A stretch of DNA of 64,000 nucleotides from a phage. Position 1 is the first letter of the stretch. Every line of letters begins with the position of its first letter. The notes under the pieces are model-generated. The model ran no database searches and was not told the DNA's origin. It saw nothing but the letters and a program-made list of their open reading frames with translations. Positions 3,392-52,831 of this stretch are shown one piece after another. The DNA lies in sequence record PQ724392.1. One strand, written 5' to 3'. The translations under genes were made by a program, and so were the position numbers.

Positions 3392-6300
3392 ATGGCCGAT
3401 ATTTTAAAACCAGCATTCAGAGCAACATCCGGTCTCGATGCTGCTGGTGAGAAAGTCATTAATGTCGCAAAAGCTGATTACTCAGTTTTATCAGACGGCG
3501 TTAACGTAGGTTTCTTTATAGAAGAAAACACAGTTCAACAATATGATGCAACACGCGGATACAAAAAGAACTTTGCAGTTATTAATGATAACCGTATTTG
3601 GGTTGCTCAACGTGATATTCCGGCACCAGCTGGAGCATTTACCCCTCAGTATTGGTTAGCAACTCGTACTGACCCTAAATGGGAAACTGTTGCATCTCCA
3701 ACTCGTCAGCTTAGCTCCGGGGAATTTATCGCAGTCGACTCAGCTGCAAGCTTTACCACATTTACCTTACCTCCGAACCCGACTGATGGTGATACCATCG
3801 TTATTAAAGATATCGGCGGTAATACCGGTTATAATGAAATTAAAATCCAGTCAAGCAACGTGCCTGGTCAAGGTAACCAAAAGATTGTTCGCTTTGGTAA
3901 TCAGTATTCAGAAGTTTTAATTACCAAACCATTCTCTTATAACATGCTTATCTTTTCAAACCGCTTATGGCAATTTTGGGAAGCAGGTAACGAAGAACGT
4001 GGTATCAGAGTAGAACCGTCGACCGGACGTTTCCATGCACAAGCTGGCGACTTTATTATGCGTCGTTATACAACTGGTGCACCGATTACTTTCATTCTTC
4101 CTAAGTATGCAAACCAGGGTGATATTGTCAAATCTGTTGATATCGATGGCATGGGGCCAACGTTCCACCTGATGGTTGAAACCTTTGACACCAGTTCCAG
4201 TCTTGGGAAAGCTGGCCAGCATCAAATGGAATTCCGTACCACAGGTGATGGTTTCTTCGTTTATAATGCTACCGAAAAACTCTGGTATGTTTGGGACGGT
4301 GATTTTAAAACTCGTCTTCGCGTTATTCGCGACAGCGTTAAACTTTTACCAAACGAAAGTGTCATTGTATTTGGCGAAGATAACTCAACTCCGGCAACGA
4401 TTAATATCGATTTGCCAACTAATGTTTTGCAAGGCGATATTGTTAAGATTGCGCTGAACTATCTCCGTAAATCGCAGACTGTTAATATAAGAGCTGCTGT
4501 TGGCGATAAGATTGCAACTGACATTAAATTGCTGCAATTCCCTAAACGTTCCGAGTATCCACCAGATACAACTTGGGTGATGGTTGATTCATTGACCTTT
4601 AATGGCAACATCAGTTATACTCCGGTTATTGAATTATCATATGCAGAAGATGCAGTGTCTGGAACAAGTTATTGGGTTGTCGCTCAGAACGTCCCGACTG
4701 TCGAACGAGTTGACTCATTAAATGATTCCACGCGTACACGTCTTGGTGTTATTGCTCTGGCAAACCAGACTCAGGCAAACGTTGACCATGAAAATAACCC
4801 AGAAAAAGAACTCGCAATTACCCCTCAGACTTTAGCCAACCGTGTTGCTAAAGAGAACCAACGAGGCATTGCCAGAATCGCAACGACTGCCCAAGTAAAT
4901 CAGAACAGTGATTTTGCATTTGTTGATGATGTAATTATTTCTCCGAAAAAACTCAATGAACGTACGGCAACAGAAACGAGACGTGGACTCGCAGAACTCG
5001 CCACACAGCAAGAAACCAATGCGGGTGTAGATGATACCACAATTATAACTCCAAAGAAACTGCAAGCTCGCCAGGGCTCAGAATCGCTATCTGGTATTGT
5101 AACTTACGTTTCAACGACTGGTGCAACTCCTGCTGCTTCGCGTGAATTAAATGGTACAAACGTTTATAATAAAAATACGGTTAATCTGGTTGTTTCTCCG
5201 AAAGCTCTTGACCAGTACAAAGCTACTTACACTCAGCAAGGCGCGGTTATTCTTGCGGTTGAAAGTGAAGTAATCGCTGGTACTTCACAATCTGGCTGGG
5301 CAAACGCAGTCGTTACTCCAGAAATGTTGCATCGCAAAACTGCTCTTGATTCCCGTATCGGTTTAATCGAGATTGCTACTCAGGTTGAAACAGATGCAGG
5401 AACCGATTATACCAGAGCTGTGACTCCTAAAACGTTAAATGACCGTAAAGCATCAGAAACGTTAACCGGCATAGCCGAGATTGCTACGCAATCAGAATTT
5501 GATACTGGAACTGATGATACTCGTATCTCAACTCCATTAAAAATTAAAAATAGATTTAATAATACTGCTCGTACTTCTGTTAATGCATTAAGTGGTTTAG
5601 TAGAAACAGGGACGCTCTGGGACCATTATAGCCTGAATATTCTTGAAGCAAATGAGACTCAACGTGGCACAGCAAGATTAGCAACTCAGGGTGAAGTCAA
5701 TACTGGCACTGACGATAAAACAATCGTTACTCCGCTTAAATTGATGTCGAAAAAAGCCACTGAAAACGCCGAAGGTATTGTTCGCATTGCGACAAACGCA
5801 GAAGCAACAGCAGGCACATCAAAAGTCTTGGCCATTAGTCCGTCTGCGCTGAAATATATTGTCCAAACAGAAACAACTTGGGAAGCATCTGAAACACTGC
5901 GTGGATTTGTTCGTTTATCTTCCGGTGCAGCTACTTCGGCCGCAACTACAACGACGGGCGCGGGATTTACATATGCAAATGGTGTGTATACCCCGGACCC
6001 AAGTAAACTGGTTAGCTATGCGAAATCTGGATATGCAGTTTCGCCTTACGAATTAAACCGCGTATTGCAAAACTTCTTACCAATAAATGCGATGGCTGTT
6101 AATGCTGAAAAACTGGATAACCTCGATTCAACCCAGTTTATTCGTCGTGATATTGCTCAGACTGTTGAAGGTGTATTAACCCTTACTAAGCAGACAAATA
6201 TCTCTGCTCCGGTTGTATCGACGAGCACTGCGGTGTTTACTGATGTAACGGCTGGTACTTCGACGTTCGGAACTGTGAATGTTGTTAATGGAACTAACAA

Positions 6301-7348
6301 GTGGAAAATCACTGCTCCTTCCACCGGAACGACAATGACTATTGGTGATACGACTAACGTATTGACATTAAACACCGCCTCGGGTAATGCTGCTGTATTG
6401 AACAACCTCAGCGCCGGAAACGATGTTCAAGCCAAAAATAATTACGTTCTAAATGGTCGTACTATTGCAACTACAACGGGCGAAGCTTCTGGTGCAACTT
6501 TGTCTCTGGGTGATAACTCACAGAATTTAGTGCTCAAAACTCTTGATGCTGGCAATATCATAGCAAATGGTGGCGGTGCATTTAAAGTTCTGACCGAGAA
6601 AAACGCAGTAGAAATTGTTGATAGAAACTTTGTTAACCAGGCTGGTGATACAATGTCTGGTGTACTCCGTGTAAATGCTCCGGTCCGTGTATTTGGTACA
6701 AAACCGAGTCTTATTGCACAAGCTCCGACTGCTGATACTGTTGGCTTCTGGTCTGTCGATATCAATGATGAACCGACTTATAGCCAGTTCCCTGGTTATT
6801 GGACAATGAAGTTAAAACGTCAGGTAAACATTGATACGGTTCAAACTAAACCTGCTGGGGTAACTGATGAAGTTTGGAATGCTTCTGGTTGGTTAACTGA
6901 AAACGGAACTTTTGCCTCGCCCGCTATTCGTTATCGTACTGATGATGGTACACTCGGTGATGAAGTATTAGGTAGCTCCGGACAGAAACTGCGCGGAACC
7001 TGGTTTGACTATTCAGTTCGCGACAAACAAATTAAATATCCTGGTACATTGACTCAGTTTGGTAATACGCTGGATTCGTGCTATCAAGATTGGGTTTGTT
7101 ACCCAACTGAATTGAACGGTGGTACTATTCGTTATACTCGTACGTGGCAGAAAAATAAATCTGCATGGACGACTTTCGCAATGGTTTACACCGCGGATAA
7201 CCCTCCGTCTGCAGAGGATGTTGGCGCATTACCGGCTGACAACACAACGATGGGGAACTTAACCATTCTTGATTGGTTGCGTATCGGTAACGTGCGTATC
7301 ATCCCAGACCCGACCACTAAATCCGTTAAGTTTGAATGGATTGAATAA
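3392..7348 (+). CDS. 34: long tail fibre proximal subunit gp34
   Basis: 1318-aa ORF on plus strand, first gene of the 34-38 fibre operon; internal ~30-aa repeats (ATQ.E.N.GTDDT.I.TPK.L) typical of T-even fibre shafts; late promoter TATAAATA upstream. Confidence 0.9.
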   Translation: MADILKPAFRATSGLDAAGEKVINVAKADYSVLSDGVNVGFFIEENTVQQYDATRGYKKNFAVINDNRIWVAQRDIPAPAGAFTPQYWLATRTDPKWETVASPTRQLSSGEFIAVDSAASFTTFTLPPNPTDGDTIVIKDIGGNTGYNEIKIQSSNVPGQGNQKIVRFGNQYSEVLITKPFSYNMLIFSNRLWQFWEAGNEERGIRVEPSTGRFHAQAGDFIMRRYTTGAPITFILPKYANQGDIVKSVDIDGMGPTFHLMVETFDTSSSLGKAGQHQMEFRTTGDGFFVYNATEKLWYVWDGDFKTRLRVIRDSVKLLPNESVIVFGEDNSTPATINIDLPTNVLQGDIVKIALNYLRKSQTVNIRAAVGDKIATDIKLLQFPKRSEYPPDTTWVMVDSLTFNGNISYTPVIELSYAEDAVSGTSYWVVAQNVPTVERVDSLNDSTRTRLGVIALANQTQANVDHENNPEKELAITPQTLANRVAKENQRGIARIATTAQVNQNSDFAFVDDVIISPKKLNERTATETRRGLAELATQQETNAGVDDTTIITPKKLQARQGSESLSGIVTYVSTTGATPAASRELNGTNVYNKNTVNLVVSPKALDQYKATYTQQGAVILAVESEVIAGTSQSGWANAVVTPEMLHRKTALDSRIGLIEIATQVETDAGTDYTRAVTPKTLNDRKASETLTGIAEIATQSEFDTGTDDTRISTPLKIKNRFNNTARTSVNALSGLVETGTLWDHYSLNILEANETQRGTARLATQGEVNTGTDDKTIVTPLKLMSKKATENAEGIVRIATNAEATAGTSKVLAISPSALKYIVQTETTWEASETLRGFVRLSSGAATSAATTTTGAGFTYANGVYTPDPSKLVSYAKSGYAVSPYELNRVLQNFLPINAMAVNAEKLDNLDSTQFIRRDIAQTVEGVLTLTKQTNISAPVVSTSTAVFTDVTAGTSTFGTVNVVNGTNKWKITAPSTGTTMTIGDTTNVLTLNTASGNAAVLNNLSAGNDVQAKNNYVLNGRTIATTTGEASGATLSLGDNSQNLVLKTLDAGNIIANGGGAFKVLTEKNAVEIVDRNFVNQAGDTMSGVLRVNAPVRVFGTKPSLIAQAPTADTVGFWSVDINDEPTYSQFPGYWTMKLKRQVNIDTVQTKPAGVTDEVWNASGWLTENGTFASPAIRYRTDDGTLGDEVLGSSGQKLRGTWFDYSVRDKQIKYPGTLTQFGNTLDSCYQDWVCYPTELNGGTIRYTRTWQKNKSAWTTFAMVYTADNPPSAEDVGALPADNTTMGNLTILDWLRIGNVRIIPDPTTKSVKFEWIE
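4810..5930 (+). repeat. coding repeats within gp34 (about nine degenerate ~30-aa units)
   Basis: recurring peptide pattern G.A..ATQ.E.NAGTDDT.I.TPKKL in the translated ORF; boundaries approximate. Confidence 0.5.
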
Positions 7349-7356
7349 GAGGTAAT

Positions 7357-8487
7357 ATGGAAAAATTTATGGCAGAGTTTGGACAAGGATACGTCCAAAC
7401 GCCAGTTATATCAGAAAATAATGCCGTTAAATTTAAAATGAGTATAGCAGGGAGCTGTACTCTTTCCACGGTGAAATCGTATATCAAATTTCAGGATGAA
7501 CGAATTGGACCAACTACTTTTGGCAATGGTCTGACTCTATTGGAAATTGATACAACTACGAATAAAATTGTTAACACGAAAAACTATTCATTAACTAGCA
7601 CACATGATGCAATCAGTCAGGCATTAATCACCTTTGTGGAATCTGTTCCAGCCGGAAGATTGATTGCTTTTATTTCTTCAGGGAAACTAAACGCATCACA
7701 GACATTAATTGATTGGTTCCGTAAATGTGGTTCAAGAGCATTCCCAGATAAATGGCTGATTGATAAAGTTGATACATCGTACTCGGCTTTTTACATAACC
7801 GGCCGGAATGTAATTGTTTCGGAGCATGTTAAGTATAATGACGGGAAGTTAGTTGAGGATGTTTCGACTCCGCTTGAAGTCATTTATGATACCTTTAGTG
7901 ATATAGGAGCAACAGGCTATCCTGTACGCATAACGGAAGACGAGAGCACGTATTCATCAACAGGTGATGGAACATCAACCACAATTAAAAGGTTCCCCAC
8001 AGAGGACCTGGTGACCCCTATGAGCACCTATAACCTTTTACCTTTGGATGTGCTTTACTTGAAGTTTCAGATGTCATTTGACGCAGCACTGAAAGCCGCC
8101 GGAACTGTAAGGACCTCGGTTCGATTCTTTAAAAGCCCCAGCACTTCGCCGATATCAAATACAAACATCGATATTGCAGCAAACGTTCCAGCCGGAGCGT
8201 GGGCGAGTTTCGAAAGATATGTCGAGATTCCAGCAGGAGCTGATGGCTTTACGGTAGTAACATCAAGAACTGTAGCTACTGGAACAGGGTCAATACGTAA
8301 TATTGTTATTGGTGAGATAACCAGAGGCGACTCGGCATTCAAACCAGCTGAATTTGGTGTCAATGGCATAAGGATGTCATATGCAAACGATGCAACAAAT
8401 ACAGGCAATACAATTGTAACATTCCCGGATGCGCAAGCTCCGAGAGCCGGCAAGATATATGCAGCCGAACTACGAGAAAAACAATAG
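7357..8487 (+). CDS. 35: long tail fibre hinge (knee) protein gp35
   Basis: 376-aa ORF beginning MEKFMAEFGQGYVQTP as in recalled T4 gp35; position 34-35-36. Confidence 0.9.
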   Translation: MEKFMAEFGQGYVQTPVISENNAVKFKMSIAGSCTLSTVKSYIKFQDERIGPTTFGNGLTLLEIDTTTNKIVNTKNYSLTSTHDAISQALITFVESVPAGRLIAFISSGKLNASQTLIDWFRKCGSRAFPDKWLIDKVDTSYSAFYITGRNVIVSEHVKYNDGKLVEDVSTPLEVIYDTFSDIGATGYPVRITEDESTYSSTGDGTSTTIKRFPTEDLVTPMSTYNLLPLDVLYLKFQMSFDAALKAAGTVRTSVRFFKSPSTSPISNTNIDIAANVPAGAWASFERYVEIPAGADGFTVVTSRTVATGTGSIRNIVIGEITRGDSAFKPAEFGVNGIRMSYANDATNTGNTIVTFPDAQAPRAGKIYAAELREKQ

Positions 8488-8509
8488 GACTCTTCGGAGT
8501 CCTTTTTTC
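8487..8509 (+). terminator. rho-independent terminator after gene 35
   Basis: GGACTC-TTCG-GAGTCC followed by TTTTTT. Confidence 0.7.
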
Positions 8510-8511
8510 GT

Positions 8512-8519
8512 TATAAATA
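8512..8519 (+). promoter_or_regulatory. late promoter (TATAAATA) for genes 36-37-38
   Basis: exact TATAAATA ~35 nt upstream of the gene 36 ATG, right after the terminator. Confidence 0.65.
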
Positions 8520-8554
8520 CAAAATATCATATGCCGGTTGAAGAGGACTTATAA

Positions 8555-9202
8555 ATGGCAGATTTAAAACTAGGCTCAACAGCCGGGGGTTCGGTCCTCT
8601 GGCACCAGGGTAATTTCCCATTAACACCAGTCAGTAATGACTTATATTTCAAAACTTATAAAATTTATTCCGAATATAACAAGCCACAAGCAGTCGATAA
8701 CGATTTTGTTTCTAAAGCTCTTGGTGGTAATTATAAAGCAAATGTATATTTCGAACAGGGCCTGACATTTAACGATTCAAATGGTTACGGGATTAAGTTG
8801 GGAGCGAGAACGGGCGGTGCTCCATTTACCGCATCTTTCCGTATTAAAGGACCATTTGGATTTGAAACTGAAACAGCAACCCCATTTGTTATTTTTGACC
8901 CTGACACTACGCCAGGAGCAAAACGTCTCATTGTTATGGGTGATACGTTAGCTCGTCAAGTTTATGATGAAACAGGTCGTGTATTTTCTCCAGGGAATAC
9001 TCCGTCAAAAGCTCAAGTTGGTCTTGGTAATGTAACTAACCAGCAACAGGTAGAACTAAATAATAGTACATTGCAAACAATGACAGGTAACTTGTCGGCA
9101 CCTAATTTCTTCTCTAGGAACCCAGCATCAGACCCGGCCCATGTGCCTCGTTTTGACCAAATCGTTCTTAAAGACTCCGTACAAGATTTTGGATATTATT
9201 AA
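8555..9202 (+). CDS. 36: long tail fibre distal connector gp36
   Basis: 215-aa ORF; MADLKLGST.GGSV.WHQGNFPL.. and C-terminal ..APNFFS.NPAS.P.HVPRFDQIV.KDSVQDFGYY match recalled T4 gp36. Confidence 0.85.
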   Translation: MADLKLGSTAGGSVLWHQGNFPLTPVSNDLYFKTYKIYSEYNKPQAVDNDFVSKALGGNYKANVYFEQGLTFNDSNGYGIKLGARTGGAPFTASFRIKGPFGFETETATPFVIFDPDTTPGAKRLIVMGDTLARQVYDETGRVFSPGNTPSKAQVGLGNVTNQQQVELNNSTLQTMTGNLSAPNFFSRNPASDPAHVPRFDQIVLKDSVQDFGYY

Positions 9203-9210
9203 GAGGCATT

Positions 9211-12200
9211 ATGGCTACTTTAAAACAAATACAATTTAAAAGAAGTAAGGTTGCCGGCGTTCGTCCGGCGCCAACAGTTCTTGCTGAAGGTGAACTGGCT
9301 ATCAACCTGAAAGACCGCTTACTTTTTACTAAAGATGACACCGGCGCCATTATCGACCTTGGTTTTGCCAAAGGCGGTAATATTGATGGTAATGTTATTC
9401 ATAACGGTAATTACAATCAAACTGGTGATTATACTCTTAACGGTGTATTTACTCAAATTGGTGATTTCAATCTCAATGGCATTGCTCGTGTAACTCGTGA
9501 TATTATTGCGGCAGGTCAGATAATGACCCACGGTGGTGAACTTATTTCTAAGAGTGCCTCAACTTCTCACCTTCGTTTCTTTGATGGCAATGACCGTGAA
9601 CGTGGCATTATCTTTTCTCCTAATAATGCAGGGGCAACCAACCAAGTAGTTAATATTCGTGTACAAGATTATTCTACCGCAAGCGAAAGCACTTATGCAT
9701 TTTCAGGCGCCGGTGTATTTTCTTCTCCTGTAGTTTTTGGATGGAAATCTGTATCAACTCCCGTAATTTATACTAATAAAGTTATTACAAATGGTAAAGT
9801 TGCCGGCGATTATGATATCTATTCATTGGCCGATAATACCCCATTGGCAGAAAGTGAAACAGCTATTAACCATCTCCGTGTTATGCGAAATGCTGTAGGC
9901 GCGGGTATATTTCACGAAGTTAAAGATAATGACGGAATAACCTGGTATGCTGGAGATGGATTGGACGCTTATCTTTGGTCATTTACATGGTCAGGTGGAT
10001 TGAAAGCCGGTCATTCTATTTCCGTAGGCACCCCAGGTAACTCTAAAGGATATTCTGAATTAGGAAATGCTTCAATTGCTCTTGGCGATAATGACACCGG
10101 GCTAAAATGGCATCAGGATGGATATTTCCATACAGTAAACAACGGCACGAGAACTTTCCTGTACAGCCCAGCAGAAACCACCAGTCTTAGAAAAATGGTT
10201 ATGGGGTATTCTACTAACGGAACCGATTTAACTACTCCTCCTACTGAAAACTATGCTCTTGCTACTGTTGTTACTTACCATGATAATAACGCGTACGGTG
10301 ACGGTCAAACTCTTTTAGGGTATTATCAAGGCGGTAATTATCACCACTATTTCCGTGGTAAGGGCACTACAAACGTTAACACCGCTGGCGGTTTGTTAGT
10401 TACGCCTGGTAATATAGATGTTGTTGGTGGTTCGGTTAATATTGATGGTAGAAATAATGCTTCTACGCTGATGTTTAGAGGTAACACAACTGGTAGTAGT
10501 TCAGTTGATAATATGACTATCAGCGTTTGGGGTAATACCTTTACTACTGTCGATGGCGACCGTAAAAACGTAATGGAAATATCTGATGCCACCAGCTGGA
10601 TGCATTATATTCAGCGTAAGACTGATAATACCGTTGAGGCCGTATTAAATGGACAACAAACTATTAACGAAAATCTTGTTGTCAAAAAAGATATTTTAGT
10701 TGATAAGGCGGTCCACACCGCCGGCGAAATTACTACAAGTGCCGTTAATGGGCTCCGCATCTGGAACAACGATTATGGAGCCATTTTTAGACGCTCAGAA
10801 GGCAGTCTTCATATTATTCCTACTGCATTCGGTGAAGGCATGTCCGGCGATATTGGTCCACTTCGCCCGTTTAGCATGGCTTTAGATACTGGTAAAGTCA
10901 CTATTCCAGATTTACAATCAAGTTACAATACGTTCGCAGCAAACGGTTATATTAAATTTACTGGTCACGGAGCAGGCGCCGGCGGTTATGATATTCAATA
11001 TGCACAAGCAGCTCCTATTTTCCAAGAAATTGATGATGCAGCAGTAAGTAAATATTATCCTATTGTTAAGCAGAAATTCTTACAAGGAAAAGCTGTTTGG
11101 TCTTTAGGTACTGAAATTAATTCCGGGACTTTTGTTTTACACCATCTTAAAGAAGACGGGACCGGAGGTCATACCTCAAGATTTAATGCTGATGGTACAG
11201 TTAACTTCCCCGATAACGTGCAGGTTGGTGGTGGTGAAGCTACTATTGCTCGAAACGGTAATATCTGGTCCGATATTTGGAAAACGTTTACTTCAGCAGG
11301 CGATGTAACTAATATTCGCGATGCTATTGCCTCCCGTGTGGCCAAAGAAGGTGATACGATGACCGGCCGCTTAACTCTTAATGCAAACTCGGATGCTATT
11401 GTTATTAACAGTGCTGCAACCGAATCTGGTTATGTGAAAGGACAAAAAGCTGGTGTTGATAACTGGTATGTAGGCAATGGCGGCGCTGATAACGCCCTAT
11501 CGTTTTATAGTTTCCGAACTAATTCAGGCGTTAATATTCATAATAGTGGGGAAATTGCTTTAGCTCCTCAAGGGTCGGATACTTTTTATTTTAATAGGGA
11601 CCGTCTTTATATAAAGGGTTCACAATGGGCCGCACACCAGGCTGGCGATTGGGGAAACCAATGGAAGCAAGAAGCCCCTGTGTTTGTAGATTTTGGTAAT
11701 GTTGGTAATGATAGTTATTATCCGATTATCAAAGGAAAATCTGGTATTACTAACGAAGGATACGTATCCGGTGTAGATTTTGGTATGCGCCGCATCACAA
11801 ATACATGGGCGCAAGGTATTATTCGTGTAGGTAACCAGGAAAACGGTTCTGACCCGCAAGCTATCTATGAATTCCACTCTAATGGTACTTTTTATGCTCC
11901 GAGCTTACTTAAGAGCAACAGAGTATCGGCTGGCGGTGGTGACCCTGTATGGGGTGGACCGTGTATCGTTATAGGTGATAACGATACCGGTTTGCTCTGG
12001 GAAGCGGACGGTATTTTCAACGCATATGCAAATGGTCAAGGGGTGTTTAGTTTTAGAGCCGGACTTGCCCAGACATTTGGTAACGTTAACTTACACTGTA
12101 ATGCGGGTATGTATGTTCGTGATAACATTGATGTTAACGACGTTTATATTCGTTCTGATATTCGTTGTAAGTCGGAAATTAAGCTTATTAAGAATGCTCA

Positions 12201-12471
12201 AGAGAAATCTAAACTCTTAGGTGGTTATACTTATCTGCTTAAAAACTCTGTCACAGATGAAGTTAAACCGTCTGCCGGTTTAATTGCTCAGGAAGTTCAA
12301 GAAGTATTGCCTGAACTTGTGACTGAAGATAAAGAGACTGGCTTACTTCGTTTAAACTATAACGGTATTATCGGTTTAAATACTGCTACTATCAACGAGC
12401 ATACTGATGAAATCAAGGAATTGAAATCTGAAATTGCTGAGTTGAAAGCATTAATTAAATCATTATTATAA
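9211..12471 (+). CDS. 37: long tail fibre distal subunit gp37 with C-terminal intramolecular chaperone (peptidase S74-like) domain
   Basis: 1086-aa ORF; N-terminus [32 protein letters not shown] matches recalled T4 gp37; C-terminus [12 protein letters not shown]...[15 protein letters not shown]...LNYNGIIGL resembles the autoproteolytic chaperone domain of endosialidase-type fibres. Confidence 0.9.
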
Positions 12472-12474
12472 GAA

Positions 12475-12490
12475 AGGGCCTTCGGGCCCT
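12475..12490 (+). promoter_or_regulatory. UUCG-tetraloop hairpin in the 29-nt 37-38 intergenic spacer
   Basis: AGGGCC-TTCG-GGCCCT immediately followed by GGAGG (SD of gene 38) and TTTTT. Confidence 0.5.
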
Positions 12491-12500
12491 GGAGGTTTTT

Positions 12501-13280
12501 ATGGCAGTAGTAGGAATTCCTGGCTGGATTGGGACATCAGCAGTGGCTGAAACAGGTCAACGTTGGATGACAGCAGCTTCTAGAGAATTGCGTCTTGGTA
12601 ACCCATCTTGGATGTCGCAATTTGCTGGTCGGTCCCGTGAGATTATTCACACACTTGGAGCTGACCATAACTTTAATGGACAATGGTTCCGCGACCGTTG
12701 TTTTGAAGCCGGCGGTGCTCCTATAGTGTTTAATATCACAGGCAACTTAGTATCATATACTAAAGATGTTCCGTTGTTCTTTATGTACGGTGATACCCCT
12801 AACGAATATGTTACTTTGAATATTCATGGTGGTGTTCATATGTGGGGCCGAGGTGGCAACGGTACAGTAAATGGAAGCCCAGGCACTAATGGTGGTGACG
12901 TAATCCAAAATGATATTGGTGGACGACTTCGCATTTGGAATTATGGTGTGATAGCCTCCGGTGGTGGTGGCGGCGGTGCCGCATCATTACAGAATAGTTG
13001 GCCTGCAAATGCTACAGCAGGTGGCGGTGGCGGCAGACCATTTGGTCTCGGCGGCGGTGGTGTTAATTGGCCAGGCGGCAATGCTAGTTATGATGGTCCA
13101 GGTGGCGGTGGTAATGCAAACCAATTTGGCGGTGGCAATGGCGGTGATGCTGGTGGCGCTGGTGGCGCTGGATGGGGTAATAACTTATCCAGGTCGGGTG
13201 GTGGTGCTCCTGGTAGAGCAGTATTCGGTTCCTCCCCATCATGGGGCGCGACAGGCACTATCTACGGCTCATGGTTATAG
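12501..13280 (+). CDS. 38: tail fibre adhesin gp38 (T2-type, glycine-rich motifs)
   Basis: 259-aa ORF immediately after gp37; conserved N-terminal half followed by runs of GGGGG separated by short variable segments, as in T2-type gp38 adhesins. Confidence 0.8.
12957..13215 (+). repeat. glycine-rich motif repeats in gp38 (GGN-codon tracts)
   Basis: at least six runs of ggtggcggtgg-type sequence encoding GGGG(G) blocks separated by short variable segments. Confidence 0.7.
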
Positions 13281-13291
13281 TACATAAGCAT

Positions 13292-13299
13292 TATAAATA
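13292..13299 (+). promoter_or_regulatory. late promoter (TATAAATA) for holin t
   Basis: exact TATAAATA ~18 nt upstream of the t ATG. Confidence 0.65.
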
Positions 13300-13317
13300 T
13301 CTTTAAAGGAGAAAAGT

Positions 13318-13971
13318 ATGGAACCAAAAGTAGGAATATCAATACCCGACCTACTTTTTGGACTTCTTGATAGAATTTTTAAAGATAATGCGACCGGGAA
13401 AGTTGTTTTTTCCCGGGTACTAGTTATTGTTCTATTATTTTTAATGGCGGTAATCTGGTATAAAGGTGATGCAATTTTAGATGCGTACAGGGATGCTTCA
13501 TACGCCTCGTACACTGAAATGATAAGGCAAGACCAGGATAACAGATTTAAAATTGCAGCTATCGAGCAAATCCAGATAGTCCACTCGTCAAGTGGGGCAG
13601 ACTTTACAGCAATATATTCTTTTAGACCAACTAACCTTAACTACTTCGTGGATATGGTGGGATACGAGGGGATATTACCTGATACAGTCGATGAAAAAAA
13701 CTTGGGTGGGTTTCCAATAGATAAGACTTCAGCGGAATATTTGGCGGGGGTTAATGGTAATTATTTCGAATCCAGTACGGAATCTGTATTCTTACCAACA
13801 AAGAAAAAAAGCAGCTTTACATATATGTTCAGCTGCCCATTCTTTAATTTGGAAAACGTTTATGCAGGCACAGTCTCACTGTACTGGTATAAGCAAAAAC
13901 CCGACCTTGGTTTTGATAGGCTTTCTTCTATGTGTGGACAAGCAGGTCGTACGCTTGGGCGTACACGTTAG
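13318..13971 (+). CDS. t: holin T
   Basis: 217-aa ORF; DLLFGLLDRIFKDNATGKV, single N-terminal TM segment and FSCPFFNLENVYAGT.SLYWY match recalled T4 holin (218 aa); late promoter TATAAATA ~20 nt upstream. Confidence 0.9.
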   Translation: MEPKVGISIPDLLFGLLDRIFKDNATGKVVFSRVLVIVLLFLMAVIWYKGDAILDAYRDASYASYTEMIRQDQDNRFKIAAIEQIQIVHSSSGADFTAIYSFRPTNLNYFVDMVGYEGILPDTVDEKNLGGFPIDKTSAEYLAGVNGNYFESSTESVFLPTKKKSSFTYMFSCPFFNLENVYAGTVSLYWYKQKPDLGFDRLSSMCGQAGRTLGRTR

Positions 13972-32556: not shown

Positions 32557-32751
32557 ATAGTCGGAGATAAAAATCCCTGGCTCTTCATTGTTAAAATATT
32601 CAATCGCGGCCATACGTTTCCGAATAAGATTCAGTTCCAGTAAAACATAATTACCCTGCACGACGATAGTCGGATTATCTTCGAAAAATTCAACCGCGTC
32701 CTGAATACCATAGATAAGATTATCTAAATCTTCTTTATGTACTTTATACAT
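32506..32751 (-). CDS. hypothetical protein
   Basis: 81 aa from internal ATG; C-terminal codons lie in a 40-bp tandem duplication that also contains the dexA start. Confidence 0.4.
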   Translation of the reverse strand: MYKVHKEDLDNLIYGIQDAVEFFEDNPTIVVQGNYVLLELNLIRKRMAAIEYFNNEEPGIFISDYVAGEIQKLKEMCDGCW

Positions 32752-34072
32752 AATATGCGTCGTACCTCGCTCGTGTGATTCCAACATAAGCCAACTGGCT
32801 CGCTAATGAAGCTTCGGCCATATGGATGCATGGAGTATAGATGAATGCTTTGTCCACTGAAACGCCTTGGGCCTTGTGGATTGTACTGACCGGAAGAGCA
32901 CGAACTTTCAAGAAGGTCCTGCGCGCTTTCCAGAAGTCTTTCCACTCTGGACGTTTACCAGCGGCTTTCATCTGTTTGTATGTGTCAGCAACTTTCGCCA
33001 GATATGCCTGGAATTTTGGTTGCTGGTCTTCTGGTAAAACTTTAATGCGGTCAACCTGATATTCTTCATCTTCATCAATTGACTCAACTTCCAGGTCCCA
33101 GTAATTAATCACTAACTGGTGCGATTCGCCTTTACAACGGAGAATGGTGGAAGTGTATTTACAATCCTTGATACGAACCAACTGACCATTATTAAAAATG
33201 GTTTCGCTGAATTTCTTACCTTCAAATTCCAGCTCTTTCATGTGCGGCTCTTGCATAACCAGGACTTCATACGGTAAAAATGCTTTATCCGTTTCATATA
33301 GCTTGCGACGAATAATATTGTTCAGTTTTTCAACTGATTTATTCGTGTATGCATACATCCTGTTTTCCATCAACATATCAGCATCTTTTACAATACTGAA
33401 ATAGTTTACCATGAAATCCTTTAAAGCAGTTTGTGAGGTGAAACCTTGCACACCATGACCTTCATACATACAGTCACGGAACCAACCCCCATTACGAATT
33501 TCTGTCGCCACTTCAATGATAGGAGCATTACTTCGCATAACCTCAGTCAGATGAATCTGTTTGAACTTAGGATGCGTAAAGAATGGACTTATCTTTTGTT
33601 GTGTACTTCCTGGGTCAACCGGCTGCAGCTGGTGCATATCACCAATCCCAAGAATAGTACACCATTCAGGAACAGAGTTAAGAATAATCTTAAACAGAGA
33701 CCCGTCATACATACTTGCTTCATCGCAAACCAGAACATTACATTTTGACATGTCAGGCATTTCGCGCTGTTCAAAAACGTTTTGGTCTTCATATGTGGTC
33801 GGGTTAATCTTCAAGATACTATGGATTGTATTCGCTGTTTGACCAGACAATTTAGATAAAACTTTTTTCGCCTGGTGAGTTGGTGCAGCGAGCACAATTC
33901 CCATAACTCCATTACGCACTAAGTGGTCAATGACAAATTTTGTCAGAGTGGTCTTACCTGTGCCAGCTGGACCATTCAGAGTGATACATTCCCCTGAACG
34001 CCGCTGAATAGCTTCAGTGATATAATCAAAAGCTTCTTTTTGTCCTGTGTTCAAGTCTTCAAATTTAATCAT
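32744..34072 (-). CDS. dda: DNA helicase Dda (SF1B)
   Basis: 442-aa ORF; Walker A NGPAGTGKTT, ILAAPTHQAKK, VLVCDEASMYD, and C-terminal KAQGVSVDKAFIYTPCIH....LAYVGITRARYD match recalled T4 Dda. Confidence 0.9.
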   Translation of the reverse strand: MIKFEDLNTGQKEAFDYITEAIQRRSGECITLNGPAGTGKTTLTKFVIDHLVRNGVMGIVLAAPTHQAKKVLSKLSGQTANTIHSILKINPTTYEDQNVFEQREMPDMSKCNVLVCDEASMYDGSLFKIILNSVPEWCTILGIGDMHQLQPVDPGSTQQKISPFFTHPKFKQIHLTEVMRSNAPIIEVATEIRNGGWFRDCMYEGHGVQGFTSQTALKDFMVNYFSIVKDADMLMENRMYAYTNKSVEKLNNIIRRKLYETDKAFLPYEVLVMQEPHMKELEFEGKKFSETIFNNGQLVRIKDCKYTSTILRCKGESHQLVINYWDLEVESIDEDEEYQVDRIKVLPEDQQPKFQAYLAKVADTYKQMKAAGKRPEWKDFWKARRTFLKVRALPVSTIHKAQGVSVDKAFIYTPCIHMAEASLASQLAYVGITRARYDAYYV

Positions 34073-35188: not shown

Positions 35189-35248
35189 CTACTTTTTCAC
35201 CTTTAACGCTTTTATTTTTACTGTGTATAATGGTTCTAAGGTCTTTGG

Positions 35249-35863
35249 TTAGTTCAAAACAGTTAAATGCCAAACAGTATACAGGTTATTCAATGGGTGT
35301 GTTTCAATCAAGTCTACGCGGAGCGTAGTCCCAGCGGGAAACATAAACTCATCTTCATCATTAACCAGGTGCAAGTTTGACTTCCTGGTTGCTTCTGGAT
35401 ATGCACCATTGAACTCTTCAGGAGGAGCACCGCAAATCATTTTGAAGATTGCTTCCTGATAGTTATACGCATATGGTGCATTGTTTATACAGAAAATGTT
35501 CCTTGTGCCATAGAAACTGTATGATGCAAAATTTCTTGCAACCTGCCAGTCCCTGGAAAAACTCATTACACGATTGAATTCAATTGTTGCGCCAACATAT
35601 CTTAAATCTTCCAGGTATTCCATGGTTTTCTTTGATATACCACGGAACAATGCTGCCGGCGGCGCAGTATTCAGATTGTTGCGGATAATCCTGGACAAGT
35701 CTTCTTGAATCAGGTCGGGTTTATTTTCCATACACTGCCAGAGTACTGATTGCTCATTATCTGTATAAAGAGCATCAATCTCCGCTTGACATTGGTTACG
35801 AAAAGACTCACTAGAAGCGGCAGTGTCAATAATTCCATTCAAAACGTCATCAGTGTACAGCAT
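35249..35863 (-). CDS. modA: ADP-ribosyltransferase (ModA-like, R-S-EXE class)
   Basis: 204 aa from ATG with GAGGA SD; motifs ALFRG (Arg), SFSRD (S-x-S) and EDEFMFP (E-x-E); position after srd as in T4. Confidence 0.65.
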   Translation of the reverse strand: MLYTDDVLNGIIDTAASSESFRNQCQAEIDALYTDNEQSVLWQCMENKPDLIQEDLSRIIRNNLNTAPPAALFRGISKKTMEYLEDLRYVGATIEFNRVMSFSRDWQVARNFASYSFYGTRNIFCINNAPYAYNYQEAIFKMICGAPPEEFNGAYPEATRKSNLHLVNDEDEFMFPAGTTLRVDLIETHPLNNLYTVWHLTVLN

Positions 35864-35894
35864 TTTATTATCCTCATCAGTAGTTGATAGGAAC

Positions 35895-35924
35895 ATCTTA
35901 ACGTGTCTTATTGCTCTTGTACAC
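35895..35924 (-). promoter_or_regulatory. T4-type early promoter (weak -10)
   Basis: minus strand TGTACA - ~18 nt - TAAGAT, then conserved leader; upstream of the ModA-like gene. Confidence 0.4.
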
Positions 35925-36468
35925 AGTCAAGAACATAATAATCACCAACAAATCCAGCATCAACTACCACGAATTTCTGGTCAACTGGAACAAACCATTC
36001 AAGCTCAGAATCAATCATGTCCATGTATTCTTCGCGCCTTAATGTAGCTGCCCGGACGGAACCAGAAGCTGTATTGAAGAATTCCAGTGGAACGTCAAGC
36101 GCGATTTTGCGCATCGCATCATGGTAACAAAAAGCTTTGGTCTGATTCAATCTGACGATAGTCCTTGTCACATATTCCATTGCAGCAAAATCCCTGGCAA
36201 TACCATAGTCTTCTGTAAAGGAGGTTACCCGTCCAAATTCAAAAGGTTGCATTGATTCTTTTGCTTCATCTAACAAATCAATCTCTTGCTGGGTTACTCC
36301 GCGCCACAAGACTGTATCGGGTATAGACAACCTTGACTTGATGATTGAGTTGACATTTGAATGCAAGGTCTTATCAACCTTTGATGTGCGGCATTCAAAT
36401 AATGAAGCTATCTCCATTTCACTAAATTTTAACTGGTTGGGTTCGGTATCAGATTTGATGATGTTCAT
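35908..36468 (-). CDS. modB: ADP-ribosyltransferase (ModB-like, R-S-EXE class)
   Basis: 186-aa ORF; motifs VLWRG, TSFTED, SELEWFVP; tandem with the ModA-like gene. Confidence 0.6.
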   Translation of the reverse strand: MNIIKSDTEPNQLKFSEMEIASLFECRTSKVDKTLHSNVNSIIKSRLSIPDTVLWRGVTQQEIDLLDEAKESMQPFEFGRVTSFTEDYGIARDFAAMEYVTRTIVRLNQTKAFCYHDAMRKIALDVPLEFFNTASGSVRAATLRREEYMDMIDSELEWFVPVDQKFVVVDAGFVGDYYVLDCVQEQ

Positions 36469-36524
36469 AATGGTCTCTCTGTTGTAAGAAAGACCATTAT
36501 GTCATTAGGAGGGGAGTAAGTAAA

Positions 36525-36794
36525 CTACTTAAACACTCCAAGTGGAACGCCAAAGACTGCAATGTCTACGGCCATACCAATCGGAGATTGGTATGATGGA
36601 GATTGATATGATGAGTAAGAACTTTTCGATTTTATCGGGGTTTCGACTTTAATTGTCTCGGATTCAGTCTTAAGCCTTTGTAAACGATTAATTTTTTGTT
36701 GCTCGATTTCCTTATGAGCATGTTTACGGTCGATATCCAGCGCCGATGTGGGAATATTTGTTAACCAGTTCATTGTTTCACCCATGGTGCCCAT
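36525..36794 (-). CDS. hypothetical protein with Ser/Tyr-rich tail
   Basis: 89-aa ORF; low-complexity SSYSSYQSPSYQSP. Confidence 0.4.
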   Translation of the reverse strand: MGTMGETMNWLTNIPTSALDIDRKHAHKEIEQQKINRLQRLKTESETIKVETPIKSKSSYSSYQSPSYQSPIGMAVDIAVFGVPLGVFK

Positions 36795-36948
36795 GGAGGT
36801 GGGTCGTCGTAATATGAGGCCAGGTCGCGTAGAACTTCCATTGGGAGGCTAAAACCGTGCTTCTGTATAATCGCATCAAGTTCGTCAACTAGGTCCACAC
36901 GGGCTTCCGTAGGAGCTTTAGGCTCTTCAAAAAGTTCAAATAAATCCA

Positions 36949-37431
36949 TTAGTAACCACCGATAGGGCCGTAACCATACATACGAGCTCGGACTTTAGTA
37001 TCGTGCATAGCTTCTTCTGTTAAAGTAAAGCGCAGACCAATATCAAAGTGTTTCCAAATCTGACGTTCGACTTCAGCAAGGTCGTCGGTAGTGGAAATCA
37101 GATATGTGCGACCTTGAAGACGTTCAGTGGCCATTTTATCTCTATCTTTATAGAAAATGGTATCTTCGCCATAAAGGTCTGGGTGACGATAGCCTTTGAT
37201 GTGCAGAGCTTCGGAAACAGTAAACGGACACCCTTCGGCAACATTAACGTTTTTTCTATGAAATACCTTCAGCATAACGTTTTCTGGCATCGTCAAGTTC
37301 ATTAATTTTGTTTCCAATGCAGTGACCGAATCCATGCCATTGTAAACCATGATAAGACATGCGGTAGCATCGTAAGGTCGTGTTTGACCTGCCGAATCAC
37401 GGACATAGAATTCTAATTCGTATACTTTCAT
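36949..37431 (-). CDS. hypothetical protein
   Basis: 160-aa ORF in the mrh-soc region of the T4 map; identity unverified. Confidence 0.5.
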
Positions 37432-37573
37432 AATGTTTTCCTCTTACCGACTAATGGACCATCAGGAACTTTATTTTCCTTGATGTACTTTTCGTTTTCT
37501 TCCATCATTTTACTGCCAATTTTCAAAAGCAAATCCAGTGCTTCTTTTGCTCGGCGTTCAGCATCTTCTTGTG

Positions 37574-37768
37574 TCATGATTTATCTCCGTAGATATCACG
37601 CATCAGTTTAAGCGCTGCTCGTTCAGTCTTCTTTTCCTGCATGGCTTTAAGCCCGTTAACGGCCCATTCTTCGGCTTCACGTTGCATTTCTTCCTCGGCC
37701 CTGGCTACCCAGGAATCATCAATCCCTGGAGTAACCAACCAATCTTTAAGCCAACTTGTAATTCTCAT
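37574..37768 (-). CDS. hypothetical protein
   Basis: 64-aa ORF, co-oriented. Confidence 0.4.
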
Positions 37769-38122
37769 TTAATCACACGAGCTGGAAGACGAATCACAGC
37801 TTCCCGAATCATAGGAGGAATAAGACGAATCACCGGTCCACGAACTAACTGCGGCGGCGGTGACCACAATCGAAGTAGTATCGATACTGCTTCGCGCTTG
37901 GGCTTGGGCTTGGGCTCTTTGTTCTTGCAGTCGAGTTAAACGTTTTTGTAGGTCTTCTTCTGACATTGTAGAATATAGGTCTTTTGATTTCGATTTGACC
38001 ACTTCTTCCATCATGCCGTCACCCATGTAAACATATTCTCTTAGCTTAACATCCGGCAGGCTAACCGGAACCACACCTTCACCAGGTTTAGTCTTGAATA
38101 AATTCTTGAGCCAACTAATCAT
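37769..38122 (-). CDS. hypothetical protein with Ser-rich C-terminus
   Basis: 117-aa ORF; C-terminal SSYSSYDSGSCDSSSSSCD. Confidence 0.45.
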   Translation of the reverse strand: MISWLKNLFKTKPGEGVVPVSLPDVKLREYVYMGDGMMEEVVKSKSKDLYSTMSEEDLQKRLTRLQEQRAQAQAQARSSIDTTSIVVTAAAVSSWTGDSSYSSYDSGSCDSSSSSCD

Positions 38123-51129: not shown

Positions 51130-52079
51130 TTCATTTCCCCAGCCAGTTGAGCAAACAGATAAGTCAAGTGAACTTCGGTATTGGCTGCAATGCCATGGTA
51201 CTGATTATTCTCACCCACAATCTCATACATACGGATGATGCTTGCACCAGTCAGTTTGCCATACATTTCATCAGCCAGCTTTGCAATGAAGCTTGAATAA
51301 TCATTTGCATGCTTAGGAGCCAGCCCACGGAGAACTTTAAAGTTACGGTCCTTAAGGGCATCAATCACATCATCAATTGGTGTGCGATTGTTTGTCACGA
51401 TGCTCAGAATACCGGAATCAATAACACCCTTTGCAGAGTAACGGTCAAGCTCATTAATTGTCTTACGCAGGTCCGGGAAGTTATGCTTAACCAGAGCAGC
51501 AACAACTTTCAGGTCTTCGATTTCAACGCCTTCGTTTTTACATATCGCGACTGCACGATGAATCATTTCTTTCATCATAGTGGTCTGGTCAGCTGGAGTT
51601 GCTTCACCAAACTTAATTACGCGACAACGAGACTGCAGCGGAGTGATGATGCCATCGATATTGTTCGCGGTCATAATGATTGAACAGTTGCTCGAATAAG
51701 CTTCCATAAAGCTACGAAGGTGTCGTTGTGATTCAGCCAGACCCGCGCGGTCGAACTCATCGATAACAATTACCTTGCGGCGACCTTCGATTGATTTAGA
51801 TGATGCAAAGCGAGTCAATTCATTACGCACAAAGTCAATTCGGCAATCGGAGCCGTTAACAAACAGCATATCAGAATTCGTATCTGCGCACATAGCTTTT
51901 GCAACTGTTGTCTTACCAGTACCAGGGGAACTACTGACCAGAATCAAGTTAGGAATTAAACCTTTTTTAACAATCGCCTCTAATGTTTCTTTATCATGAG
52001 CCGGGAGAATACACTCTGATAATGTACCTGGGCGGTATTTTTGTTCCCACATGAATTCTTTGTCATTAACCGTTAACAT
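51120..52079 (-). CDS. 44: clamp loader large subunit gp44 (AAA+)
   Basis: 319-aa ORF; Walker A SPGTGKTT, Walker B VIVIDEFD, SRC motif (QSRCRV). Confidence 0.9.
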   Translation of the reverse strand: MLTVNDKEFMWEQKYRPGTLSECILPAHDKETLEAIVKKGLIPNLILVSSSPGTGKTTVAKAMCADTNSDMLFVNGSDCRIDFVRNELTRFASSKSIEGRRKVIVIDEFDRAGLAESQRHLRSFMEAYSSNCSIIMTANNIDGIITPLQSRCRVIKFGEATPADQTTMMKEMIHRAVAICKNEGVEIEDLKVVAALVKHNFPDLRKTINELDRYSAKGVIDSGILSIVTNNRTPIDDVIDALKDRNFKVLRGLAPKHANDYSSFIAKLADEMYGKLTGASIIRMYEIVGENNQYHGIAANTEVHLTYLFAQLAGEMKWL

Positions 52080-52114
52080 ATATTTTCCTCATATTAGTTT
52101 CTACTTTGTACTCC

Positions 52115-52132
52115 ATGGGGCCGAAGCCCCAT
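52115..52132 (-). promoter_or_regulatory. tetraloop hairpin in the 45-44 intergenic region
   Basis: ATGGGGC-CGAA-GCCCCAT; no U-tract; possible RNA processing/stability or translational-operator context. Confidence 0.4.
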
Positions 52133-52135
52133 TTA

Positions 52136-52831
52136 TTAATCTTGGAATTCGTGGCTAGAGCCTTGTTCCATTGCAATCACATAGCTTGCTTGTGTGCCTT
52201 CAAACTTCGTAGCAAATTTATCATCTTTCGCCCAAAGCATAACACGGTAATCAGCCGGAATCATTTTCATGTTCAGTTTGTTAATGATAAATTTAAACGC
52301 TGCATCGCCTTCGTAATCACCACACACTAGGGAATACAATGGACGCGCTAACTCTTTATCTTCGAGCTGATTATAACCATGGATAACAATCTTACCGTCT
52401 TTGTTGGTGATTGCAAAAGTATCCAGAGACAAACCACCAGCCACACGCAGAAGCTGTTGCAGGTCACTACCTTTCAGGTCGAAAATAACCTTAGCTACCG
52501 GGAAAGGAATCTTCTTAGCAGGGAACACGATAGTGCTCGGGTCTGCTGCAGGCCAGTGAATCGTTGAACGTTGGTCTTTGATAATGATGTTTGATGCGTC
52601 TTCAGCCAGAGATACTTCAGCTTGGTCAGTTACCAGGCCCAGGATACTTAAGAAGCCGTTCAGGTCATAAATTGCAGCTTCAAAGTCAATTGTATCATTG
52701 ATTTCGGCTTCGCCATATGACGCTCCAGTTACGGAACGAGTCAGGATGGTATTACCTGGCTTAAGCATAATGCCAGAGTAAATGGAAGTGAAGTTTTTCA
52801 GAACTGCGATAGTGTCTTTAGAGAATTTCAT
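52136..52831 (-). CDS. 45: sliding clamp gp45
   Basis: 231-aa ORF; MKFSKDT.A.LKNF..I.SGIMLK, STI.WPAADPST, DLQQLLRV..GL..DT.AIT match recalled T4 gp45. Confidence 0.9.
   Translation of the reverse strand: MKFSKDTIAVLKNFTSIYSGIMLKPGNTILTRSVTGASYGEAEINDTIDFEAAIYDLNGFLSILGLVTDQAEVSLAEDASNIIIKDQRSTIHWPAADPSTIVFPAKKIPFPVAKVIFDLKGSDLQQLLRVAGGLSLDTFAITNKDGKIVIHGYNQLEDKELARPLYSLVCGDYEGDAAFKFIINKLNMKMIPADYRVMLWAKDDKFATKFEGTQASYVIAMEQGSSHEFQD

Follow-up and report, generated by a model that had tools for sequence, protein, structure and literature searches.

Phage ADP-ribosyltransferases (ARTs) of the arginine-serine-glutamate (R-S-E) type have been divided into two families, 'Alt/VIP2' and 'Mod' (PMC9503650). 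The closest described systems to the locus treated here are the two Mod enzymes of phage T4. According to the T4 literature, ModA ADP-ribosylates Arg265 on both alpha subunits of RNA polymerase (RNAP), and ModB modifies S1, EF-Tu and trigger factor (PMC2988021, PMC8120803, PMC10468400). One of these reports also describes RNAylation by ModB, in which RNA capped with nicotinamide adenine dinucleotide (NAD) is the donor and S1 and L2 are the acceptors; sequence differences are presumed there to be the reason why only ModB RNAylates efficiently (PMC10468400). Here we analysed a stretch of 64,000 nucleotides (nt) from phage sequence record PQ724392.1 (the window), in which an initial annotation had proposed tandem ADP-ribosyltransferase genes at 35249-36468. 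Two minus-strand open reading frames (ORFs) do lie there, one at 35249..35896 (215 amino acids, aa) and the other at 35908..36468 (186 aa, transcribed first); they are called the downstream and the upstream ORF below. Sequence profiles and structure predictions confirmed both as members of the Mod family of R-S-ExE ADP-ribosyltransferases (PHROG 832, PF26816). The locus very probably encodes two functional paralogous Mod mono-ADP-ribosyltransferases, probably co-transcribed early, within the host-takeover block. Membership of the family, a predicted ART fold, a complete set of catalytic residues, synteny with T4 and purifying selection on both genes are shown here, whereas early expression, Arg specificity and the role in host takeover are inferred. 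The feature as such is already known, since modA and modB are established genes of T4-like coliphages and these exact proteins are found in GenBank as ADP-ribosylases, and its assignment is routine annotation. The two genes are as follows.

35249..35863, minus strand: downstream mod gene in the modA position adjoining srd, 204 aa from its most likely start (stop codon 35251-35249)
35908..36468, minus strand: upstream mod gene in the modB position, 186 aa, of a very divergent Gaprivervirus-type lineage

Both ORFs matched PHROG 832 ('RNA polymerase ADP-ribosylase'), with E-values of 1.1e-38 for the downstream and 4.9e-28 for the upstream protein. The family PF26816 (Mod_ADP_RT) was found precomputed on the cluster representatives P0001 (99% identical to the downstream protein) and P0013 (95% identical to the upstream protein), and also on syntenic relatives. 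BLASTP comparison of both ORFs to T4 ModA and ModB gave E-values of 4e-14 to 1e-28. Together with the predicted ART fold and the T4-syntenic slot, these matches bear out the description of the pair as ModA/ModB-like. An identical downstream protein (100%) is present in phage EAWsc9 under the name modB, whereas its counterpart in phage VR7, with 97.7% identity, bears the name modA; the upstream protein is 99.5% identical to a protein of phage MN01 annotated as NAD--protein ADP-ribosyltransferase. Word-index homologue searches gave 12, 2 and 20 proteins, and the family was sized by an exhaustive profile search of 1.84 billion cluster representatives. That search returned 185 representatives at E ≤ 1e-3, of which 24 reached E ≤ 1e-30, which makes this a small family. 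No relative of solved structure came up when the PDB was searched by sequence, whether with each protein alone or with the profile of the family.

Both genes are under purifying selection. The ratio of nonsynonymous to synonymous substitution rates (dN/dS) against VR7 was 0.05 for the downstream and 0.11 for the upstream gene, and within-allele values against five other Gaprivervirus genomes did not exceed 0.3 throughout (0.04-0.29 for the upstream gene); for the downstream gene the figures are within-allele values only. The 3.5 kb of the window around the pair is 98% identical at the nt level to Escherichia phage ECML-359 (Gaprivervirus), and it shares 87-98% identity with some 25 further phages that belong to this genus or are related to it (VR7, SP18, RZ, P479). 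The pair is annotated as modA/modB ADP-ribosylase in ECML-359, VR7, VR20 and SP18, and as ADP-ribosylase only in other records. By the 98% identity to ECML-359 and the modA/modB annotation in its relatives, the window is therefore a stretch of a T4-type (VR7/ECML-359-like, Gaprivervirus) coliphage genome. The mod pair occupies the T4-type slot of the early host-takeover block, bounded by srd and modA.2, and the order of the neighbouring genes reproduces the T4 map.

The AlphaFold (AF2) models had predicted local distance difference test (pLDDT) scores of 93.4 (downstream) and 88.7 (upstream). When the models were compared to the PDB by Foldseek, the top matches were solely R-S-E ARTs, that is, Certhrax, HopU1, XopAI, C3 exoenzymes (C3bot), Tre1, CDTa, iota Ia and VIP2, with E-values of 5e-7 to 1e-4 (5e-7 to 1e-5 for the downstream model) and template modelling (TM) scores of about 0.5. 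The matches of the upstream model included HopU1, C3 and Ia. Among the predicted viral structures of BFVD, the upstream model matched Mod proteins at TM scores of 0.75-0.91. An ART fold of the R-S-E clade is thus predicted for both proteins.

The initial annotation had noted the triad Arg, Ser-x-Ser and Glu-x-Glu in this order in both ORFs. The order holds when the two proteins are aligned with the T4 enzymes, and the residues fall in columns shared with ModA and ModB (R, S-x-S/T and E-x-E); the serine motif of the upstream ORF, however, reads S-F-T, as it does in T4 ModB. The corresponding T4 residues are R73, S99-F-T101 and E171-Q-E173 in ModB, and R72 and E163-Q-E165 in ModA. The Glu-x-Glu, whose loss on alignment had been named as a result that would speak against the annotation, is kept in both ORFs in the alignment to ModA and ModB. 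The codons of these residues lie at the following positions; residues of the downstream enzyme are numbered from the 204-aa start (R85, S112/S114 and E181/E183 in the 215-aa numbering).

35642..35644, minus strand: R74 of the downstream enzyme (followed by G75), putative NAD-binding Arg of the triad, aligned with ModB R73 and ModA R72
35555..35563, minus strand: S101-F102-S103 of the downstream enzyme, STS-type motif by family alignment
35348..35356, minus strand: E170-D171-E172 of the downstream enzyme, read as GAA GAT GAG, with E172 as the putative catalytic Glu
36301..36303, minus strand: R56 of the upstream enzyme (followed by G57), read as CGC GGA, in an invariant column
36214..36222, minus strand: S83-F84-T85 of the upstream enzyme, STS-type motif, S-F-T as in T4 ModB
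35998..36006, minus strand: E155-L156-E157 of the upstream enzyme, the ExE motif, read as GAG CTT GAA, in invariant columns

R73 and E173 of T4 ModB are required for NAD binding and catalysis, as stated in two reports (PMC10468400; bioRxiv 10.1101/2025.07.11.664405). In our family alignment of 109 sequences, the Arg is present in 108, the following Gly in all 109, the first Ser in 106, the second Ser/Thr in 108, the Phe after the Ser motif in 105 and each Glu in 107. Every conserved residue of these catalytic columns is held by both window proteins, including F94 in the upstream one. As to the serine of the triad, one review lists R72, S109 and E165 for ModA (PMC8120803). The position equivalent to ModA S109 is variable in the family, being Ser in 32/109 sequences. 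The serine of the V-x-S-F-[ST] motif (ModA S96, ModB S99, window S101 and S83) is kept in 106/109, and in the models it is found on a beta-strand that is followed by a helix; in the downstream AF2 model the S101 motif lies on strand E100-103, and the helix spans residues 106-113. In ARTs of the cholera-toxin group the STS motif is likewise placed on a strand with a helix after it. Because of this conservation and placement, and of the variability at the S109 position, we took S101 and S83, rather than the S109 equivalents, as the likely triad serines.

The initial annotation described the two paralogues as diverged from each other, and they are indeed only 29% identical, the same value as between T4 ModA and ModB. 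The best-scoring T4 relative of both window ORFs is ModB (NP_049636), with 94 bits and 37% identity to the downstream ORF and 80 bits and 32% identity to the upstream ORF; it belongs to the same PHROG 832/PF26816 family and has the same R-S-ExE residues as both. With the upstream ORF it has in common the slot (downstream of modA.2 and upstream of the other mod gene) and the S-F-T motif, but ModB is 21 residues longer. It formed no supported clade with either window ORF, and the node joining it to the upstream ORF had a bootstrap value of at most 24%. The upstream ORF was found neither in a supported clade with ModB nor orthologous to the upstream gene of sister genera; its slot and the 80-bit score point to ModB as its nearest characterised enzyme.

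T4 ModA (NP_049635) is 35% identical to the downstream ORF (69 bits) and 29% identical to the upstream ORF (54 bits). Its catalytic residues R72 and E165 align with both, and its slot next to srd is that of the downstream ORF. In the tree ModA sits on a long branch of its own and forms no supported clade with the downstream ORF. The best BLAST matches of ModA are downstream-slot genes (JS10 at 86 bits, RB69 at 71 and the window at 68), and no BLASTP match of ModA to the JS10 or RB69 upstream genes was reported. Since its best matches are genes of that slot, the downstream slot plausibly holds the ModA lineage, T4 ModA being a fast-evolving member. Judged by sequence, neither ORF is equatable with ModA or ModB, and the names modA and modB are positional.

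The Alt/VIP2 family of T4 Alt (PF03496) and the C3-like toxins have the same R-S-E fold and catalytic logic as those predicted for the window ORFs. T4 Alt is a head-packaged protein of 682 aa, whereas the window ORFs would be single-domain early proteins of 186 and 204 aa. The PF03496 profile (ADPrib_exo_Tox) matched T4 Alt at 5.8e-36 but neither of the window ORFs, so that neither was assigned to the Alt/VIP2 family. When a Mod profile was compared to T4 Alt by hhalign, the probability was 0.5%, with the ExE strand alone aligned, which is not significant; the alignment to Alt that had been suggested along with those to ModA and ModB is therefore not meaningful at the sequence level. The lack of significant similarity between Mod and Alt agrees with the published split of these families (PMC9503650).

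Both genes were present at the coordinates first given, except for one start site: the downstream gene most likely begins at the second ATG, at 35863 (204 aa), and not at ATG 35896, and the 215-aa ORF from the latter is probably unused. The features outside the coding regions of the pair are listed first.

35864..35907, minus strand: intergenic leader with the Shine-Dalgarno sequence GAGGA and the in-frame ATG 35896, from sequence reading
36496..36525, minus strand: candidate early promoter with G-TTTACT (-35), a 17-nt spacer and TGa-CATAAT (extended -10), from a consensus scan (9/12 + TG)

The GAGGA sequence (35875-35871) precedes ATG 35863 with a 7-nt spacer; no Shine-Dalgarno sequence was found at ATG 35896. 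The second-ATG start is seen in all 12 database homologues (200-204 aa in 11 of them and 185 aa in one) and in four of five inspected records of Gaprivervirus (ECML-359, VR7, P479 and JS10-type calls), and a longer ORF of 648 nt is annotated in SP18 and RZ. When a 59-nt stretch at about 35913-35855, from the upstream gene's stop codon up to and including ATG CTG TAC, was compared among six Gaprivervirus genomes, five had the same sequence; SP18 has a single base difference in it, just upstream of ATG 35896. The Shine-Dalgarno sequence, the starts of the homologues, and the conserved leader followed by divergence right after ATG CTG TAC together make 35863 the most likely start.

The early promoters of T4 are of the -35/TGn/-10 type (PMC2988021). 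The candidate promoter at 36525-36496 starts at the stop codon that ends the preceding ORF, and the start codon of the upstream gene, ATG 36468, is preceded by a weak Shine-Dalgarno sequence, AGAGAGA (36480-36474). No terminator-like site was found between the two mod genes, either by reading the sequence or by scan. We consider it probable that a sigma-70 promoter just ahead of the first gene drives early transcription of both.

If the two proteins work as their residues suggest, each would bind NAD+ in a cleft of the C3/cholera-toxin type (R-S-E), where it would be held by the Arg on the strand with [YFW]-R-G and by the Ser on the strand with x-S-F-[ST]. The second Glu of E-x-E would activate the nicotinamide-ribose bond, and the first Glu would direct the transfer to arginine side chains of host proteins, an acceptor preference suggested by the E-x-E motif itself. 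By analogy with T4, the targets may be components of transcription and translation, for example RNAP alpha Arg265, S1, EF-Tu and trigger factor, and their modification would help to turn the cell toward phage gene expression.

Several points weigh against taking the pair as two working Mod enzymes of this kind. The local copies of Pfam and NCBIfam gave no significant match for either ORF (DRAT, FTR and Sld5 appeared below threshold). T4 ModA and ModB, run as a positive control, were likewise unmatched there, and the silence of these libraries is therefore uninformative; PF26816 is newer than the local Pfam copy. The upstream ORF is short of about 20 N-terminal residues of a helical region, and the first 11 residues of its model have pLDDT below 50. 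It also has Ala at the position equivalent to ModA S109, which is probably immaterial because that position varies across the family. The promoter scan was not enriched over shuffled sequence (12 sites found vs 12.2 expected), for which reason the site at 36525-36496 is a candidate only. Literature searches on the Mod proteins of VR7 and Gaprivervirus found no biochemical data. Finally, identity to the T4 enzymes is 29-37%, and both ORFs score higher against ModB than against ModA; the T4 target assignments are therefore not transferable. With the pair also 29% identical to each other, the initial caution that target specificity may differ from that of T4 is reasonable for both ORFs.

The bearing of this divergence on function depends on how the two genes are related to those of other T4-type phages. 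In a neighbour-joining tree (200 bootstraps) the deep nodes were weak, and the order of duplications was not inferred from them; three shallow clades were solid. The first joins the downstream gene of the window to its downstream-slot counterparts in JS10 (Dhakavirus) and RB69 (Mosigvirus), with 99% bootstrap support. The second contains the upstream genes of JS10 and RB69 (100%); its nearest neighbours are the genes that Moonvirus and Gelderlandvirus have in single copy. The third unites the upstream gene of the window with the metagenomic proteins P0013 and P0014 (100%) and, at 75%, with P0019, P0018 and P0022. The downstream proteins of JS10 and RB69 are 65% and 53% identical to the downstream protein of the window, and their upstream 'modB' proteins are about 33% identical to the upstream one. 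Compared to JS10, then, the flanking genes of the window are 76-79% identical, the downstream mod gene 65% and the upstream mod gene 33%. In an uncultured T4-like phage (contig L011) the corresponding values are 65% for the downstream gene, 89% for srd, 51% for modA.3 and 63% for the upstream gene. The segment 35912-36770, which comprises the upstream gene and an adjoining 89-aa ORF, has no detectable nt similarity to JS10, while both of its flanks are similar. The upstream protein is also bimodal across the phage collection: 34 records have it at 90% identity or more, whereas 898 fall below 60% (28-32% among the examples listed). Taken together by sequence, the upstream gene is of a lineage distinct from the 'modB' of the sister genera. 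A single mod gene occupies the slot in Moonvirus, Jiaodavirus, Gelderlandvirus, Winklervirus and Karamvirus.

In some T2-like Tequatrovirus genomes (T2, NC_054931, at about 51839-52303; VEc20; ACG-C40) we observed three Mod-like places per genome, with shorter proteins of 142-161 aa among them, named 'adenylribosylating enzyme'. By sequence, the Mod family has further paralogues or fragments beyond the modA/modB pair.

The downstream gene occurs within Gaprivervirus as two alleles whose proteins are about 66% identical. One is carried by the window, ECML-359 and VR7; the other, which is Dhakavirus-like and nearer to JS10, by P479 (L013), SP18 (L015) and RZ (L016). Between the window and P479 the nt identity is 92-100% on both sides and falls to 33-80% only between about 35240 and about 35855. 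The drop at about 35855 is sharp and places one swap boundary within a few bases after ATG 35863, and the other breakpoint is at the stop codon at 35249. The low-identity span is precisely the 204-codon ORF, and by these comparisons the alleles differ by a precise cassette exchange. The two-allele pattern agrees with the number of records at least 90% identical, which is 23 for the downstream protein and 34 for the upstream protein. Values of dN/dS between the two downstream alleles (window vs P479, SP18 and RZ), computed without alignment, were discarded, the indel offset making them meaningless. A separate upstream lineage together with exchange of downstream alleles is typical of fast-evolving phage conflict genes.

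This pattern is compatible with another reading, in which both proteins are active ARTs but one or both, more likely the upstream enzyme, act on substrates other than those of T4 ModA and ModB, such as defence or toxin-antitoxin proteins, or transfer NAD-capped RNA (RNAylation) in place of plain ADP-ribose. T4 Alt acts on MazF, which sets a precedent for a toxin-antitoxin target. The upstream ORF has an identity of only about 31-33% with T4 ModB and with the gene that RB69 and JS10 carry in this slot, and stands in a clade of its own with 100% bootstrap support. At equal divergence of the downstream gene (65%), its identity is 63% in the uncultured phage vs 33% in JS10. The downstream cassette has been swapped between genomes otherwise at least 92% identical, as in conflict genes, and efficient RNAylation by ModB alone is itself presumed to be due to sequence differences (PMC10468400). 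On the other hand, the sequence gives no hint of a particular other target, both the ExE motif, which stands for Arg specificity, and the host-takeover synteny are kept, and members of this family commonly diverge this far, with 29% identity between T4 ModA and ModB. We regard such a change of substrates as possible, though on present evidence improbable.

A more specific version would hold that the upstream gene is no orthologue of T4 ModB or of the Dhakavirus/Mosigvirus 'modB' but belongs to a third Mod lineage, which diverged long ago, occurs also in a few uncultured T4-like phages, displaced the usual gene of the slot and modifies other host proteins or uses another NAD-linked donor; the exchange of the downstream cassette between Gaprivervirus and Dhakavirus-like phages would then reflect an arms race with host sensors or reversers of ADP-ribosylation. 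We advance it tentatively and consider it unlikely as a whole. If it were true, Gaprivervirus would offer natural 'specificity variants' for dissecting the target choice of Mod enzymes and RNAylation.

It is far less probable that one of the two enzymes has lost catalysis and is kept as a binding protein or decoy; the upstream one, being short and divergent, would be the most plausible candidate for such a pseudo-enzyme. Its long branch and shortened N-terminus would fit such a protein, as would the Ala at the place where one review puts the triad Ser of ModA (PMC8120803). However, R56, G57, S83, T85, F94, E155 and E157 are all kept, dN/dS is 0.04-0.29 across the Gaprivervirus genomes, the confident core of the model has R-S-E ART matches, and the ModA S109 position is not conserved in the family.

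The least likely alternative concerns the triad itself. The initial annotation had used the bare R/SxS/ExE pattern as evidence, for which it is insufficient: a loose regular expression, R..Sx[ST]..ExE, matched 11 of the 45 window ORFs that reach 150 aa, as well as 13-20% of the sequences obtained by shuffling the two proteins, and hence is not above chance. The family signature [YFW]RG..S[FA][ST]..ExE[WFVMY] was found in these two ORFs only, and in 0/2000 shuffles. The bare pattern is no evidence, and homology and fold carry the case. That the ORFs are not ADP-ribosyltransferases and the triad is a chance pattern, as the frequency of loose matches might suggest, is refuted by the PHROG 832 match, the significant pairwise similarity, the Foldseek ART matches, the conservation of family columns and the restriction of the signature to these two ORFs, and has next to no probability left. 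The reading of the locus as two functional Mod enzymes is the one we prefer.

The genes on either side of the pair, which place it in the T4 map, are given below.

32744-34072: dda helicase, on the srd side of the pair
srd side of the pair: dda.1 (PF25693) and srd (PHROG 1400), by profile matches
opposite side of the pair: modA.2, modA.3 (T4_MRH), modA.4, srh, mrh.1-like, mrh.2, soc and gene 56

The order of the block is soc, mrh.2, mrh.1-like, srh, modA.4, modA.3, modA.2, gp023, upstream mod, downstream mod, srd, dda.1 and dda. The gap between the downstream mod gene and srd is 135 nt, and a second sigma-70-like site lies ahead of srd at 35188-35161 (minus strand; TGTACA, a 16-nt spacer and TATAAT, 10/12), which suggests that srd may have its own promoter. 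Another promoter-like site scoring 10/12 is present on the opposite strand at 35203-35231.

Two small early ORFs of this block each carry a low-complexity stretch rich in Ser and Tyr with 'SSYSSY'. One is the 89-aa ORF next to the upstream mod gene (36525-36794, minus strand; PHROG 14077, equal to VR7 gp023), whose C-terminus is a hydrophobic tail (IGMAVDIAVFGVPLGVFK); this ORF has no counterpart in T4, JS10 or two uncultured relatives (L011 and L012), and it lies within the block without nt similarity to JS10. The other is the 117-aa ORF at 37769-38122 (minus strand; PHROG 2031, mrh.1-like), which is unannotated in ECML-359. The genes modA.2, modA.3 and modA.4 (equivalent to about 36770-37577 of the window) are named 'molybdenum ABC transporter (periplasmic molybdenum-binding protein)' in Yersinia phage vB_YenM_P8 (PP693301), UPEC07 (MW250787) and UPEC01 (MW233709). 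This label evidently arose because bacterial modA has the same name, and it does not describe what these genes do.

No Alt homologue was found in the 64-kb window, as expected from the T4 map, and no tRNA genes or Rfam families were found across its entire length. The guanine-cytosine (GC) skew changes sign near 14 kb. Large plus-strand ORFs (up to 1318 aa) occupy 3392-13971, and beyond them early and replication genes follow in a long series on the minus strand; by their position and size the plus-strand ORFs may be tail-fibre genes.

For the Mod family, the comparison suggests that the invariant serine is that of the S-F-[ST] motif (S96 in ModA and S99 in ModB), which differs from the S109 given in the review. 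Outside T4 the modA and modB labels are positional, and they are inconsistent, since a protein 100% identical to the downstream one is called modB in EAWsc9 and a 97.7% identical relative is called modA in VR7; the T4 target assignments should not be copied over with the names. The allelic cassettes of the downstream gene and the divergent, possibly third, lineage of the upstream gene may serve as material for the study of Mod target specificity and RNAylation.

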